A DNA stretch of 64,000 nt from NCBI GenBank assembly GCA_951406725.2, contig OX597816.1, forward strand, positions 100,626,001-100,690,000, in the 5' to 3' direction. Within the stretch, counting starts at the first letter, position 1. Each line of letters begins with the position of its first letter. The DNA is from Octopus vulgaris (taxonomy: Eukaryota). The position numbers and the translations under genes were made by a program. Of the stretch, positions 9,891 through 61,440 are shown piece by piece. The notes beneath the pieces are model-generated. The model saw nothing but the letters and a program-made list of their open reading frames with translations. It did no database searches and was not told where the DNA came from.

Positions 9891-10038
9891 TGAGATTCTA
9901 AAAGCATATCATTATTTACATTTGACGGATATTTGTCCTCATCTTGTTTGTTGTTAACACAACATTTGGGCTGATATACCCTCCAGCCTTCATCAGATGT
10001 CTTGGGGTATTTTCGAACCTGGGTTCTCATATGCCCTT

Positions 10039-10111
10039 GGGTATATGGCATAGTGGTTAAGAGTGTGGGCTACTAACCCCAAGATTCTGAGTTTGATTCC
10101 AAGCAGTGACC
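10039..10111 (+). promoter_or_regulatory. tRNA-derived head with Pol III A/B boxes (SINE head, not a functional tRNA)
   Basis: A-box TGGCATAGTGG (10046-10056); anticodon-arm-like GGG-CTACTAA-CCC; B-box-like AGTTTGATTCC (10090-10100) with a CpG-type change from GTTCGA. Confidence 0.7.
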
Positions 10112-10179
10112 TGAACAATAATAATAATAACATCAAAAAATACCTTAGGAGTGAGAATCCAGGTTTGAAATTTCCCCAA

Positions 10180-10225
10180 GACACCTGATGAAGGCTGGAG
10201 GGTTTATCGGCCAAAATGTTGTGTT
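10180..10225 (+). ncRNA. Degenerate minimal hammerhead ribozyme (mirror copy on - strand at ~9956-10001)
   Basis: Stem I GACAC/GTGTT; CTGATGA 10185-10191; stem II GGCTG/CGGCC; AAAATGTT in place of GAAACGTT, explained by two CpG transitions. Confidence 0.65.
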
Positions 10226-10304
10226 AACAACAAGCAAGATGAGGACAAATATCCGTCAAAGGTAAATAATGTACATAATTCTTCATCTCTTAAATATAGA
10301 ACTG

Positions 10305-21647: not shown

Positions 21648-22992
21648 TTTCTAAAAAAATTTGGTAAATTTTGATCCTTTCCCCCACACGATTTTCACTA
21701 TGAAAAAAAACTCGAATTTTTTGTGTGGAATCAAGTGCCTTAATATACTCCAAACTTAATATGCTAATATGCTGCAAACTCGTTTTTGTTCAGAAAAAAT
21801 GTAGGATGGGAAACTGGACCACCCACATATCCCAGAATCATTGGAATTTTTTTTTTTTTTTGATAAATTCCGGTGATCTAATATGCAACAAAATCCATTT
21901 TGGGGTCTGGAAAACGAGGTGGGGTGAGGTGGAAGCCTTGGAGATTTCACCCCCATTGATCTTTTTATCCACACGATTTTCACTAAGAAAATAAACTTGG
22001 ATTTTTCTACATGGAATCAAGTACCCTGACCTAATATGCTGCAAACCCCTTACTTTTGTCCGGAAAAAAAGGCAAGGTGGGAAACCGCCCCCCTCCCCTC
22101 TCACATCACAATATCATTGGAAATTTTTGTCTTTTCATTGACTGAATTCTGGTGATTTAATATGCTAAAAAACCCTTTTTGGGGTTGGGAAAATGGGGTG
22201 GGGTAGAATCCTCGGAAATTTCACCCCACCCCCATTTTCAAATATATTTGCTATTTCTTTCTTTACCCATAATTTTAGATAACATTTTGCAGAAATACAT
22301 TTTCAAGAAAGTGTAGATTACATTAGATTGAAAATTCAAAGAAGTTTGAAATGAATAAATGAAAGTGCAGAGGTTATAGTAGTTAGTGGTAACAAAGTGT
22401 GTAGAGAGTTAACAAATGATAAACTCATCTAAAAAAAAAAAAAACATGTAAAAGTTTTTGCATGTACATGTGAAATGAAGTAAAAGTATAATAATTACAA
22501 AATATCTTTTTTCTACCTCTTAAAATCACTGGATATGATATATATAATAATTCCAAATAGATTTTCCCGTTGCAATTTTTGGTGCCGAAATGAGTTTCAT
22601 TTTTGTGCGGGGAGAGAGAGAGAGAAAGATAAAGAGAGAGTGGGTGAGTGAGAAAAAGAGAGAAAGAAAGAGAAAAAGTACCATTCGAGTGTGGTCGATG
22701 CTAGTGCTATCTGACTGGTCCCCTTGCCAATCACACTTTAAAAGTACCCACTACACTCTCTCAGTGGTTGGCATTAGGAAGGGCATCCAGCTGTAGAAAC
22801 CTTGCCAGAGCAGACTGGAGTTTTATTGCAGCTTCCTGGCTTGCCAGTCCTCAGTCAAACCATCCAACCCATGCCAGCATGGAAAGCAGACGTCAAACGA
22901 TGATGATGCTGTATAATGATATATATAATTATGATAGATTGTTACCCATTCAATGTTTAGGTAAATTTCATCACTCGCACACTCTCTTTCTT

Positions 22993-23028
<36 letters not shown>

Positions 23029-23637
23029 AATGCAACTCATTTTGGCGCCAAAAAGCTGCTAAGGGAAAATCTATTTGGGATTATTATATATATTATATCC
23101 AGTGATTTTAAGAGGTAGCAAAAAGATATTTTGTAATTATTATACTTTTACTTCGTTTCACACGTACATGCAAAAACTCTAACATATATATATTTTTTTT
23201 TATGAATTTATTGTTTGTTATCTCTCCACATACTTTGTTACCACTAACAACTATAGCCTCTGCATTTTCACTTACTCATTTCAAACTTCTTTGAATTTTC
23301 AATCTAACGTAATCTATACTCTCTCGAAAATGTATTTCTGCAAAATGGATATGAAAATGGGGATGGGGGTGCCACCCTTTTTTCCTGACCCAAAAGAGGG
23401 TTTTGTAGCATATTAGTTCACCAGAATTGAATCAGTGAAAAAAAACAAAAATTTCCAGTGATTCTGTGATAGGTGGGGGTGGGGGCAGTTTCCCACCCTG
23501 CCTTATTTTTCAAACAAAAGTAAGGGGTTTGCAGCATTTTAGGTCAGGGTACTTGATTCCATGTAGAAAAATCCAAGTTTTTTTTCTTAGTGAAAATCAT
23601 GTGGGTGAAAGAATCAAATACCAAAAATTCTGGAAAC
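21648..23637. repeat. Large foldback: ~670-700 bp arms (~21955-22655 / ~22965-23637), left side with an extra ~284 bp tandem unit
   Basis: CCACACGATTTTCACTA at 21685 and 21969; mirror TAGTGAAAATCATGTGG near 23590-23604; ORFs 21838-22104(-) and 23466-23786(+) translate almost identically. Confidence 0.92.
22675..22908 (+). mobile_element. RTE-type 3' end inside the foldback spacer
   Basis: AAAAGTACCCACTACACTC..GGCATTAGGAAGGGCATCCAGCTGTAGAAAC..CCAACCCATGCCAGCATGGAAAGCAGACGTCAAACGATGATGATG. Confidence 0.85.
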
Positions 23638-40947: not shown

Positions 40948-41350
40948 CATCATCATCATCATTTAACGTCCGTTTTCCATGCTAGCATGGGTTAGACGGT
41001 TCAACTGGGGTCTGGGAAGCCAGGAGGCTGCGCCAGGCCCAGTCTGATCTGGCAGTATTTCTACAGCTGGATGCCCTTCCGAACGCCAACCACTCCGAGA
41101 GTGTAGTGGGTGCTTTTTACGTGCCACCTGCACAGGTGCCAGATGAGGCTGGCAAACGGCCACGATCGGATGGTGCTTTTTACGTGCCACCGGCATGGGG
41201 CCAGACGAGGCTAGCAACGGTCACAATCGGATGGTGCTTTTTATGTGCCACCGGCACGGAGGCCAGTCGGGGCGGCGCTGGCAACGGCTACGTTCGGACA
41301 GTTCTCTTATGTGCCACCGGCACCTCAGCTACAATTTCCATTGATGTTGT
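40948..41350 (-). mobile_element. Young-looking RTE-type 3' end with four internal repeats
   Basis: (CAT)n-TTAACGTCCGTTTTCCATGCTAGCATGGG..; CpGs largely retained; same family as 1616. Confidence 0.9.
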
Positions 41351-41356
41351 TCATGT

Positions 41357-42240
41357 TTGATATTAATCACCCTGCCAAAACAACCTAAGGCCATTGAGTG
41401 CTATAACTTCAGGACTATTAGTCTCATGCTTTATGCTTTTAAAATATTTCTTACAGTCATACTAGGAAGAAATAAAAACAAAATAAATGCAGCAGTTGGT
41501 GAGGCGCAATTTGGATTTAGGACCAAAAGAGGTACAAGAGATGCCATATTTTGTTTCAACATTCCAGTACAAAAACAAAGGCAGCTACAAAAAGATCCAT
41601 TTTCCTGTTTCACAGATTATGTCAATGCATTTAACTGCAAACACTACCGAGAGCTCATCACTTCATTAGAAAAAGCCAGCTTAGAAGGAAAGGACAACAG
41701 AATGATCTGTTTATTGTACTGAAACCAAAAGGCAGCTGTCAGAATAGATCAGGAATTGTCAGGACCAGCAGAGATCAAAGGAGCTGTAAAATAAGAATTC
41801 ATGCTATCTCTATACCCATTTATATATTTATTGAGTCAAATCAGAGCAAAGGACTCTCTAAATATCAAGGGCATGATATTAATAGCCAAGGGGATGAACA
41901 CAAACAATAAGATATAATACAACATTATTGGCTGACAGTAATGAGAAATTATGAAAATTGTTGATGATGTAAAAGAACAAAGTGACTAAAAAGATATAAA
42001 TATGAATAATGGAAATTAGTAATATTGAACTAAAGGAAACAAGTATAAAGGTAAATAGACAGGTTCTTGAACAAGTAAAACACTCAATGTATTTAGAACA
42101 AATAATAACTTGGAAGGTTGTTGTGAAGAAATTTCTCAGAGAAAAAATAAGGCTAAAACAACATCTATGTGAATAGTAAGTATCTTCATCTCAAAAGACA
42201 TAACACCGAAGCAAATTAAAATTTTGTGTGACACCTTTCC
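41357..42240 (+). mobile_element. RTE-clade LINE reverse transcriptase pseudogene fragment
   Basis: ORF 41357-41722 LITLPKQPKAIECYNFRTISLM..QFGFRTKRGTRDAIF..CFTDYVNAF; continues with stops (NQKAAVRI..IKGAV..; VLEQVKHSMYLE). Confidence 0.9.
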
Positions 42241-44041: not shown

Positions 44042-45318
44042 TCAGGTTGAGTAAAAAATAAGCAACAATTTGAATCATGAAGAATTTGTACTAGACTTTT
44101 GCAGTTTTTAATTTATTTAAACATTTTTTTGCAATTGTCTGATAATACAGACATAGACTTGCTCAAATGCATCAGTAAATTAACATTGATATTTTTTCGC
44201 CATTGTTACAATCATCTAAAATGGAACTGTCAATGTGAAATATTTGAGCAATTTTGCTATTCAACTTCACCAAAGGATGTAAACAGTTGAAACTTCTTGG
44301 GATATCAATGAAACATTTGGTAAGGAAATGACCAGTTACTGGTCAGCTCGAAAATGGTTTAAATGACTATGCAGTGGGGACCTGAGCCTTGAAGATTGTG
44401 AGCATAGTGGACAGCCATGTGTCATTGATGATAGTCAGTTAAAGACCATCATTGAGAAAGATCCACATAAAACCACTTAAAAACTGGCAAAAGAGCTTCA
44501 AGTTAGCCAGAAATCTGTCTGCAATCATTTGCATGCAATCAGAAAATAAAGAAGCTCAACAAATGTGTCCCGCACAATTTGAGTGAAAATCAGAAAATGT
44601 GTAGATATGAAATTTGCTCATTGCTTCTTCTCCATAACCAGACCAATCCATTTCTCAATCGTATTGTAACTTGCGATGAAAAGCGGATTCCATACAGAAA
44701 TTTTTAAAAAATGTTCTTCATAGGGGTTGGACCAAAATGAAGGACTGCAAACTTTCCTTAAACCCGACCTCTTCAAAAGGAAAGTTACGATGACTGTTTG
44801 ATTGTGTACTGCTGGACTTATTTATAACTGCTTGAAATCCAGAAAAACCATTACTGCAGAAACATATTGCCATGAACTTGCCAAAATGAACGAAAAACTG
44901 CAACTCGTCCATCCTAGACTGTTCAACAGAAGAGTGCCAATCATTCTTCATGACAATGCTCAATACATGTTTCACTAATGACAGTCCAGAAGTGGAGGGA
45001 ACTTGGCTACGAAGTTCTTCCCCACCCATCTTATTTTCCAGACCTTTCTCCTACCAACTACCACTTTTTCAAGCACCTTGATAGTTTCCTGCGAGAGGAG
45101 TTCAAAAATCAAACCAATGCTGAAAGTGCATTCAAAGAGTTTGTCAGCTCCAAAACTCCAGACTTTTATGTTACTGGAATAAACAAACTTGTAACTCATT
45201 GGCAAAAATGTGCTGATTGTAATGGTACTTACTTTGATGAATAAAATTTTCCTATAGTTGAGATATATTGTGATAAATTTCATGTTTCAAAACGTTGCTT
45301 ACTTTTTACTCAGCCTGA
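44042..45318 (+). mobile_element. Full-length (1277 bp) inactivated mariner transposon, cecropia/Hsmar1-like
   Basis: TA-TCAGGTTGAGTAAAAAATAAGCAAC ... GTTGCTTACTTTTTACTCAGCCTGA-TA. Broken transposase: SGDLSLEDCEHSGQP, CVPHNLSENQK, RIVTCDEK, LHDNA, LPHPSYFPDLSPTNYHFF..YFDE. Confidence 0.95.
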
Positions 45319-54839: not shown

Positions 54840-55630
54840 TTTTTGGTTCTTGGTTTTCTTTTTACAGTTGTTTTGAAACAGTAGAACTCCTAAATTCATA
54901 TTCAATATTTCTAGAACTTCACAGTCTCATTTTCAAGAATTGAATATATTTGGAATTTGTGTAGATTTTCCTGCCAATGATTTTTCTGACCATCAGCTTC
55001 ATGCATTAGTAGTCACATGTTGATTTGTTTGTTGTAGTAAAATTTTTGGTTGTTCTTTTTTATATGTTGATAATAATGTGTTAATTTTTATGGTTTTTGT
55101 AATTAATCATCTGGTTTTGTGTGGAAATTTATAAATTACATCTCTCCCATGTAAGTTCAACATGCACTGCAGCATGGAGCTGTTGTACATCATTATAGCA
55201 CATCCCATAAAATAAAATGAAATTAGATAGGAAAATACTAGTGAAGAATACTTACATACATCGTAATATACCACACAAAAACAAAAGACTGACTATAGAA
55301 ACCAAATTCCTATTGTAGTAAATTGCCAAAACATATGCATCAAAGCATTAACACACAGCTACTGACATTAAAAAATAAAAAAAACCTAACTGTTAAAATT
55401 TGACCATAACAAACAAATCAACATATGACTTCTGATGCATGAAGATAACAGTCACAAAACCTTAGGTGGCAAAGTCTACATGAATTCAACTAAACTAAAC
55501 TGAAACACAACAATTCCAAATATATTAGATTCTTAAAAATAAAACTGCTTATGTCTGGAAGCATCAAATAGGAATTTGAGACCTCTACTTTTCCAAACCA
55601 ATTGTAAAACACTATCAAGAACTTGGAAAG
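54840..55630. repeat. Old diverged inverted repeat (arms ~54840-55100 / ~55330-55630), MITE-like
   Basis: CTTCATGCATTAGTAGTCACATGTTGATTTGTTTGTT (~54997) mirrors AACAAACAAATCAACATATGACTTCTGATGCATGAAG (~55408); flanking similarity continues. Confidence 0.7.
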
Positions 55631-55772
55631 GTTCTAAAATTAAAAAGCTAAATTTTGAACATAGTCAAGTTTTATCTTTCTTATATGAAAAATAAATAAA
55701 TAAAATTTGAACATAGTTATACATTTAATGAAACATGCAGAAAAGAAAAGCAGTTCCCCACATATAAAAACA

Positions 55773-55815
<43 letters not shown>

Positions 55816-56065
55816 CACTATATATGTATATATACATATACATAAAGTAACAAAATAAGGAAAGGAATTCCTTCAAAGGGGTGTGTAAAACATCCAATTC
55901 ACAGGTATGTCAGTTGAATACCGCATAAATATAGATATAATGCAAATTACAAACAATAAGTTAAATAGAGAGATTCAATTGACAATCCAATAGTTTATTT
56001 ATATTAAAATATAACATAATAGACTATGAATACAATATAAGGTAGCATAAAAAACCATTAAAAAG

Positions 56066-56157
56066 CCAAAAGAGCCAACAATTTGTTTCAACTTATATAT
56101 ATTATTTGATTTATAAACAATTCTTATCCACTTATATAAGTCTCTTCAGAGCTTTGG
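56066..56157 (-). ncRNA. Type I hammerhead ribozyme, complete core (antisense copy)
   Basis: On - strand: CCAAAGCT-CTGAAGA(56149-56143)-GACTTATATA..TATATAAGTT-GAAA(56089-56086)-CAAATT-GTT(56079-56077)-GGCTCTTTTGG. Confidence 0.75.
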
Positions 56158-56330
56158 TTTAAAGACAGACAAAATTCTGTGTAAAAGGACAGCTGAACTG
56201 GAGAAAAATTAATTCAAAATAGTAGGTACTTGTCCAAGAACTGAACCTGAAACTACATGTTGGGAAGCAAGATCCTTAACCATACCAAAAAGCCTCTACA
56301 TCTGTGTGTGTGTATGTATGTGTCTGTAAA

Positions 56331-56423
56331 CCAAAGCTCTGAAGAGACTTATATAAGTGGATAAGAATTGTTTATAAATCAAAATAATATATATAAATCG
56401 AAACAAATTGTTGGCTCTTGTGG
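56331..56423 (+). ncRNA. Type I hammerhead ribozyme, complete core
   Basis: CCAAAGCT-CTGAAGA(56339-56345)-GACTTATATA..TATATAAATC-GAAA(56400-56403)-CAAATT-GTT(56410-56412)-GGCTCTTGTGG; stem III is near-palindromic AACAA.A.TTGTT. Confidence 0.75.
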
Positions 56424-56489
56424 TTTTTTAATGATTTTTATGGTATCTTATATTATATTCATAGTATATTATGTTATATTATAATATCT

Positions 56490-56520
<31 letters not shown>

Positions 56521-56575
56521 ACACATACACCTCCACATGCATGTGCATACACACACAGATATAAACATGTTTGAA

Positions 56576-56870
56576 TGGTTAAGAACCTTGCTTTCCAAAC
56601 ATGTAGTCTCAGGTTCAGTCCTTGTGTAAGTACTTTCTATTATTGTCCTGAGCTGACCAAAGCCTTGTGAGTGAATTTGATAAATAGAAACTGAATGAAG
56701 CCCATCATGTGTGTGTGTACTTGTCTTTACATTACATGATGGTTATAAATGTGTATCACCATCATACAAACATTGTTGGTCATTTACAGTCTTCTGTGGA
56801 AATAGTACATTGCTTGGAAACAGGAAAATCTGTCATAACAAATTCTGACTCAGGGAAAAATGGACATGAA
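56576..56870 (+). mobile_element. tRNA-derived SINE, diverged; inverted head copy at 56226-56282
   Basis: TGGTTAAGAACCTTGC..GGTTCAGTCC..GACCAAAGCCTTGTGAGTGAATTTG..GAAACTGAATGAAGCCC matches the 734 head. Confidence 0.8.
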
Positions 56871-57162
56871 AATTCTAGAATGCATTTATGGCCTAGGTAA
56901 TTTACATAGATTAAACAACAAGCTAAGATAGAGAACTTAGAGTAGCCAGTGACACCTCTACGGACAGCAAAGGAAAATATAGCTATATCAAATACCTTAC
57001 AACATAAATTCTTGCCTTATTGAAATTATCTCCCTCTCTAGAAGTTGTGTCAACATTACCAAATGGTTGCTAAGGACAGCTCCATATGAGAAGGAGAGAT
57101 CATCTCAAGAACCAGTATATATATATATATATATATAATATAATATAATATAATATATGATT

Positions 57163-61159: not shown

Positions 61160-61440
61160 AATTGAGGTGAACACTTCAGACACACATAGATCTCATCAGC
61201 TTGCATACCCTATGGTATGACTTGGTAATATTTTACGCAACCCCCCTGCAAGGACAACAGTCAAGCTCCACCATAATAGCAGTATTGTTTCTAATATCCC
61301 TTGGTAACCTATCTAGGGCTTCTAGTGCACCACGGTGTGCCATTGTGCATTCATCCCAGACAGTAAGTGTAGTTTGGAGCAGAACCTCTGCCATCAGTGT
61401 TCATTTTGAAATATTGCACATTTGGGCATCGCTGAAGTGA
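61160..61440 (-). mobile_element. Helitron PIF1-like helicase remnant (motifs II-III)
   Basis: CNISK../MAEVLLQTTLTVWDECTMAHRGALEALDRLPRDIRNNTAIM../TVVLAG../MQADEIYVCLKCS. Confidence 0.85.

Follow-up and report, generated by a model that had tools for sequence, protein, structure and literature searches.

We consider it highly probable that the locus described here consists of two 5′-truncated end regions of a Penelope-like element (PLE) lying head-to-head, that both likely arrived in one insertion at a TA-rich site, and that the two hammerhead ribozyme motifs they carry are likely decaying passengers. The locus lies in a 64,000-nucleotide stretch of Octopus vulgaris DNA (contig OX597816.1, positions 100,626,001 to 100,690,000 of the forward strand), hereafter called the window. 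An earlier note, made from the letters of the window, had reported an inverted repeat with one hammerhead core on each strand, and this is borne out: the arms 56001–56167 and 56321–56487 align over 168 columns at 92.3% identity, 155 of the 166 ungapped columns match, and each arm holds one type I core. The minus copy reaches beyond the inverted repeat, running 400 nt from 56218 to 55819; it resembles copies of a dispersed repeat family at 82–88% over up to 400 nt, and its 3′ end is the family's long end. Table 1 lists the features of the locus. A weak tRNA match at 56561–56632 scores 18 bits, under the gathering score, and ARAGORN found no tRNA gene. Immediately to the left of the locus, window positions 54860–55609 hold an old inverted repeat (68% over 215 columns).

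Table 1. Features of the head-to-head locus, in window coordinates
Feature	Positions	Strand	Description
(TAT)n run, left end	55775..55818	.	sequence
Left arm	55819..56218	-	400-nt 5′-truncated element end region that includes the hammerhead and reaches the long 'tail' end at 55819
Hammerhead motif, type I, minus copy	56063..56160	-	C3 at 56149 and G12 at 56089; cleavage predicted after 56077; lesion G10.1-U11.1 (56090)
Spacer	56218..56322	-	inverted copy of right-flank 56534-56641 (microsatellite plus decayed SINE head)
Right arm	56321..56487	+	167-nt 5′-truncated copy; stops ~55-75 nt before the family's usual short end
Hammerhead motif, type I, plus copy	56328..56426	+	C3 at 56339 and G12 at 56400; cleavage predicted after 56412; C x A stem II mismatch (56348/56397); stem I change (56420)
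(TA)n run, right end	56488..56515	.	sequence; usual insertion context of the family
Older SINE copy, tRNA-like head, spacer source	56560..56720	+	alignment with other copies of a common SINE

Each arm presents CUGAAGA, a 10-bp stem II, the string GAAAC-AAATT-GTT and a short stem I, and the core elements CUGANGA, GAAA and NUH occur in type I order in both copies. Loop II spans 34 nt in the plus copy and 33 nt in the minus copy. Position H17, a U in the plus copy, falls at 56412 there and at 56077 in the minus copy, which reproduces exactly the cut sites predicted in the earlier note. A hammerhead descriptor matched once per strand in the window and never in 40 Markov-simulated windows searched on both strands. 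The Rfam hammerhead search gave no match at the gathering score in the window and none at E ≤ 10 over 55500–57000; the long loop II may explain this miss.

The earlier note called both cores complete. This holds for the core bases, all of which are kept, and fails for stem II, which matches the family majority in neither copy. In the plus copy, C56348 opposes A56397 at pair 3 and stem I is changed as well, while in the minus copy G10.1–U11.1 replaces the G–C pair of the family majority. Loss of the G10.1–C11.1 pair lowers the rate of hammerhead cleavage. Neither window copy combines an intact G10.1–C11.1 pair with an intact stem II; an exact 19-nt 3′ half that retains C11.1 is kept at 107 other sites, and a 26-nt version at 44, and neither copy has them. 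PMC4209133 describes the G10.1–C11.1 pair as highly conserved. In isolation, stem II of the plus copy is predicted at a probability of ~0.01, and the minus copy forms nine of its ten stem II pairs at P 0.8–0.9 with stem I at 0.01. The folding model is a rough guide, in that stem I reaches 0.4–0.5 in the family copy L012, is also misfolded in L075 and L009, and L077 failed the pattern match. The window copies are probably not active, or barely so; the minus copy, with its core bases and nine of ten predicted stem II pairs kept, may still cleave slowly.

The arms belong to a dispersed repeat family with more than 800 candidates in the genome. The right arm as query yielded 838 first-look candidates, 40 of which were scored and proved 82–92% identical; the other family query yielded 822, again with 40 scored. 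Covariation was assessed in an alignment of 22 rows, made up of 20 loci of diverged subfamilies and the two window copies. Pairing is found in 89.0% of cells, a value equaled in 0 of 500 shuffles, and the covariation score of 0.232 was as high in 2 of 500; both scores are inflated by kinship among the rows, and the two measures based on the number of pairs or of pair types do not rise above the shuffles (298/500 and 414/500). Stem II is 92% paired and includes three double-change pairs: pair 5 is U–A in six rows, U–G in ten and C–G in six, and pair 3 is C–G in 15, U–A in three, U–G in two and broken in two. Stem III is 95.5% paired and almost invariant, stem I is weaker (73.6% paired), and RNAalifold predicts six stem II pairs only. 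Within the window's own subfamily we found wobble-compatible variants with no double changes, and this variation is mostly post-insertion noise. Covariation, which the earlier note had asked for in stems I and II, is seen in stem II at the level of the family. As read from the alignment, the case for a genuine hammerhead fold in the family's source elements is good but not decisive. All four bases occur at N7 across the subfamilies. Five of the 20 diverged-subfamily copies (L141, L142, L148, L153 and L156) carry the core change U4C, a C at position 4, while the core is good in other respects; U4C is described as a low-activity natural viroid variant (PMC3088659).

To follow the core after insertion, we took the 30 copies that ORF or tail queries had recruited. 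At core positions, 30 of 300 cases (10.0%) depart from the majority, as against 380 of 3327 (11.4%) outside the core (p=0.51); the core is intact in 11 of the 30 copies, and the core plus the first four stem II pairs in four. Inserted copies lose core bases at the background rate. Natural copies in which core and stem II are both intact include L012 and L155. Across all 72 copies, many of which were recruited by core-containing queries, the core is 6.1% divergent versus 11.3% outside (p=6e-6). Near-identical family copies lie in clusters tens of kb apart, on G000 at C20 44.00–44.10 Mb (L062, L063, L065 and L066), at C15 19.30–19.37 Mb (L096–L100) and at C20 4.24–4.44 Mb, and these clusters are probably carried in tandem segmental duplications.

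The locus had been put forward as the best candidate for an active ribozyme in the window, a ranking that is countered by the stem II lesions, the plus-copy stem II probability of ~0.01, core decay at the background rate and the 107 other sites with the exact 19-nt 3′ half. The accompanying model, in which a functional ribozyme is kept off by the antisense arm and has been selected as a regulatory switch, strikes us as very improbable. It is right that the antisense arm is transcribed first on either strand and that sequestration is predicted: in read-through folds of both strands the stem II probability is 0 and an arm-to-arm hairpin of ~167 bp is predicted. All core bases are present in both copies, as the model would want, yet each copy has a stem II lesion and chance alone kept the core in 11 of the 30 unbiased copies. 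The hairpin, at about −221 kcal/mol, dwarfs the folds of the ribozyme region at −14 to −16 (z ~−0.5), so that no on-state is evident and the term 'switch' is not warranted. No host exon was recognized among the 23 window ORFs scanned of 98 filtered, which gave mobile-element domains only (RVT_1 below cut-off, PIF1 above). The antisense-first geometry is the normal outcome of head-to-head PLE insertion and is common to pairs whose arms span the core.

Transcription from within the hairpin has also been considered. The SINE head in the spacer has TTTTT in its A-box region and another such run just downstream, before the core, which speaks against Pol III initiating within the hairpin. For the same T-runs we rejected the idea that the SINE drives Pol III transcription of the minus hammerhead, toward whose core the head points. 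The earlier note took the short stem III to imply dimeric cleavage. Palindromic short stem III motifs of PLEs have been proposed to act as dimers (PMC4209133, Cervera and de la Pena 2014), and the octopus stem III fits these motifs; a cis dimer is impossible at the locus because each strand's transcript contains one sense core only. In the same study a single minimal motif gave no cleavage, and dimers gave low activity.

The window itself holds no ORF of the parent element, which was assigned through other loci. Searches with RT-like frames from locus L020/L027 and with the ORF start gave the order of the element modules: the ORF start is followed by RT, linker and endonuclease, then by a stretch rich in microsatellites, ~800 nt of non-coding sequence common to the copies, the hammerhead module and the next ORF start. 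The hammerhead module continues in sense into the ORF start at L054, L061 and L064 and lies 3′ of the ORF at L036, L041, L045 and L048, which gives a pLTR in partial tandem with the ORF. In 11 of 19 RT-selected loci, not counting that of the query, element end modules lie no more than 1.5 kb from the RT match. The ORF measures ~2.4 kb and is followed by ~2 kb more of shared sequence; neither a full copy nor an intact element was found. A long stretch rich in (TA/TG)n, with (AAT)n, separates the end of the ORF from the shared 3′ region and can be aligned across copies (L110:100-1060, L038:150-1060, L048:440-1050). An assignment of the upstream module as an antisense ORF was dropped, since the module maps between the endonuclease and the hammerhead.

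A motif scan of the decayed frames recovered RIRW(K), SDKT, GLYRDD, CDCRYKDKC, FYIGS and CNLC..E..N..SCTH, with RIRWK present in L067 and RIRW followed by a different residue in other pieces. The Hydra-clade motifs given in PMC8557442 are RW(K), DKT, a CxCx5C linker, and CxxC plus CxH around E and N; the ORF pieces contain the corresponding RIRW(K), SDKT, RDD, CxCx5C, FYIGS and CxxC..E..N..CxH. The top atlas match of a C-terminal ORF piece is a GIY-YIG cluster (0.97), with PF01541 in 18% of one cluster's members, and an N-terminal piece falls in clusters that are partly RVT_1 (12%), both placements being leads from one source. Pfam searches of nine ORF pieces returned no RT or GIY-YIG match. 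Judged from decayed copies elsewhere in the genome, the parent appears to be an EN+ Penelope-like element that encodes RT together with a GIY-YIG domain at the C terminus in one ORF. The Hydra-clade label is suggested by the motifs, with published proteins compared by eye. The C-terminal position of the endonuclease rules out the Naiad clade, which has an N-terminal GIY-YIG and no canonical hammerhead. No description of the family was found in the literature searched, which included part of the supplement of PMC8557442, with Repbase and Dfam outside its scope.

Linkage to an ORF also bears on whether the family could be a non-autonomous, tandem non-LTR retrozyme that spreads as circular RNA. 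Short non-coding copies do predominate, and the motif is a type I hammerhead within an AT-rich animal repeat, as in the metazoan non-LTR retrozymes (PMC7229834; bioRxiv 10.64898/2026.07.22.740005), whose non-coding AT-rich repeats are likewise related to PLE pLTRs. Unlike those retrozymes, the octopus family is without tandem fixed-unit arrays and is linked to an RT–EN ORF of its own. Arrays of whole 150–450 bp units were not seen in 130 mapped loci, which show a few partial direct repeats (e.g. L014 and L104), and copies reach variable distances in the 5′ direction, as far as the ORF. The ORF linkage largely refutes a retrozyme identity, to which we give almost no credence.

The ends of family copies point to how the locus may have formed. 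Family 3′ ends cluster at ~260–295 (short) and ~370–400 (long) of the end module. Among 27 loci whose arms are inverted, a short end is combined with a long one in 19, two long ends in none and two short ends in one, the ends being those of BLAST matches. The gap is ≤30 nt at 30 of 50 inverted junctions, and a TA run follows 27 of 41 long ends. At the window locus the long end is present and the short arm is cut further back, so that the right arm ends at module position 218, which is not a usual family end. The combination of a short with a long end corresponds to the inverted pLTR with a one-sided tail described before (PMC8557442, PMC3846280), the 'tail' signature of PLEs (PMC3846280, PMC11167929). 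In PMC11167929, the tail is tied to two RT start sites and both DNA strands are cut and extended; the PAc hammerhead of that study cleaves only with protein and is dispensable for insertion in vitro.

The spacer between the arms compares with the flank 56534–56641 at 85/103 identity, with a local score of 115 as against a best score of 62 in 137 other loci. It shares the ~13-nt deletion, the extra T and other derived bases, and the upstream microsatellite of the SINE copy in the flank, and a similar ~13-nt deletion is found in one of 37 other SINE rows (L091). Among 22 junctions with gaps of at least 25 nt, the window locus has the sole clear flank-derived spacer; L086 may be a second (39/51), and the remaining high scores are repeats or simple sequence. 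Divergence between spacer and source (18/103) exceeds that between the arms (11/166; p=0.008), an excess that one event could account for only if the arms had converted each other or copying had been error-prone. Arm conversion is unsupported: the left arm is 6.0% diverged within the paired part and equally so beyond it.

These observations bear on a rival history with the same element origin, in which an older single insertion was later duplicated by fold-back at the DNA level, giving rise to the right arm and the spacer. It would account for a spacer taken from the flank and for a right arm without the usual family 3′ end, and it fits arms that share three derived bases and are 6.6% apart, where the median is 13.5% for 19 inverted pairs and 15.9% for unlinked ones. 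A single fold-back nevertheless predicts that spacer and arm are of equal age, whereas the spacer is the more diverged, and head-to-head pairs are routine in the octopus family. On balance we hold this history to be improbable.

For the preferred reading, insertion of a Penelope-like element with both ends placed in one event, the following course can be proposed. The endonuclease would cut both strands, and each free DNA end would prime reverse transcription, which would begin at either of two fixed positions on the element RNA (twin priming). Between the two cDNAs, ~100 nt of the flank would be copied in inverted form, with a later loss of 55–75 nt from the right arm. The hammerhead would be under selection in source elements, where it likely processes element RNA in tandem or circular form, acting as a dimer or assisted by the element protein. 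As a by-product, read-through RNA at the locus would fold into a ~167-bp hairpin that buries the ribozyme. More tentatively, and with less than even confidence, we suggest that the locus is a fossil of one particular step, at which, once twin priming had taken place, the reverse transcriptase of the PLE folded back to copy ~100 nt of the target flank before the cDNAs were joined, and that the family is a long-loop, long-tail variant of the Hydra clade. If true, PLE reverse transcriptases switch template in the course of integration, from RNA to target DNA, and leave a record of this in junction spacers.

The octopus family resembles the Hydra-clade PLEs of PMC8557442, represented by Hydra-1_Obim and Penelope-13_HM, in its C-terminal GIY-YIG and its RW(K), DKT, CxCx5C and CxxC/CxH motifs, in (TA)n targets, and in a type I hammerhead near the 3′ end with a 3–4 bp palindromic stem III. 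An ORF piece at L052 follows the Hydra-1_Obim protein motif by motif in a by-eye comparison. The hammerhead sequence differs from that of Hydra-1_Obim, and the octopus elements are therefore a separate family. In Penelope-13_HM, an inverted 5′-truncated copy likewise places a hammerhead on each strand (PMC8557442 File S2). The Hydra rows in that file have a loop II of 3–10 nt and a stem II of 3–8 bp, in contrast to 33–34 nt and 10–12 bp in the octopus family; Hydra-clade elements are generally under ~3 kb, a tendency rather than a strict criterion, whereas the octopus unit probably exceeds 4 kb with its long microsatellite-rich region after the ORF.

The minimal type I metazoan PLE hammerheads treated in PMC4209133 share with the octopus motif a long helix II, a short helix I, the G10.1–C11.1 pair of the family majority and a palindromic helix III. 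They also occur as dispersed single copies and as dual motifs on opposite strands, 100–700 bp apart, as in the octopus family. Unlike them, the octopus family is without an extra base between A9 and G10.1 (in the numbering used here), has a far larger loop II and can, as a monomer, form a helix III of 3 bp closed by a 3-nt loop. The EN+ PLEs Adineta Pen2a (PMC3846280) and Poseidon_Ac (PMC11167929) have head-to-head arms, two fixed 3′ ends and AT-rich targets as well. Their tails are 30–40 bp long, as described there, against ~110–130 nt in octopus; their ends fall inside the ORF, whereas the two octopus ends lie upstream of the ATG, ~120 nt apart; and the flank-derived spacer sets the octopus locus apart from them.

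Further repeats and mobile-element remnants were noted in the window. A second head-to-head hammerhead pair, of another family with 2467 first-look candidates, occupies 9910–10271, with cores at 9996 (minus) and 10185 (plus); G12 is lost in both copies, and the spacer contains a tRNA-like head and (AAT)n. A large inverted repeat at 21956–23617, with arms of ~600 bp that are 89–90% complementary and a 470-nt spacer, is possibly a MITE-like DNA element. On the plus strand, a short frame at 161–376 is similar to the PLE RT thumb and linker without a Pfam match, an RVT_1 piece at 41345–41719 falls below the cut-off (E 1.6e-4), and mariner-like frames at 44443–45241 were recognized by eye. A PIF1 helicase piece lies on the minus strand at 61236–61400 (E 4.8e-7).

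Opposite-strand hammerhead pairs arising from PLEs, including in a Hydra family, are already known, and the long loop II, the long tail and the flank-derived spacer are minor novelties. Such pairs are a routine footprint of Penelope-like insertions, and a second pair, from another family, lies in the same window. With its stem II covariation, all four N7 bases and a U4C sub-lineage, the octopus PLE family offers naturally occurring material for tests. Intact copies are well suited to the question of whether hammerheads of metazoan PLEs cleave as dimers or depend on the element protein, and its many inverted junctions could test how PLEs join two cDNA ends.
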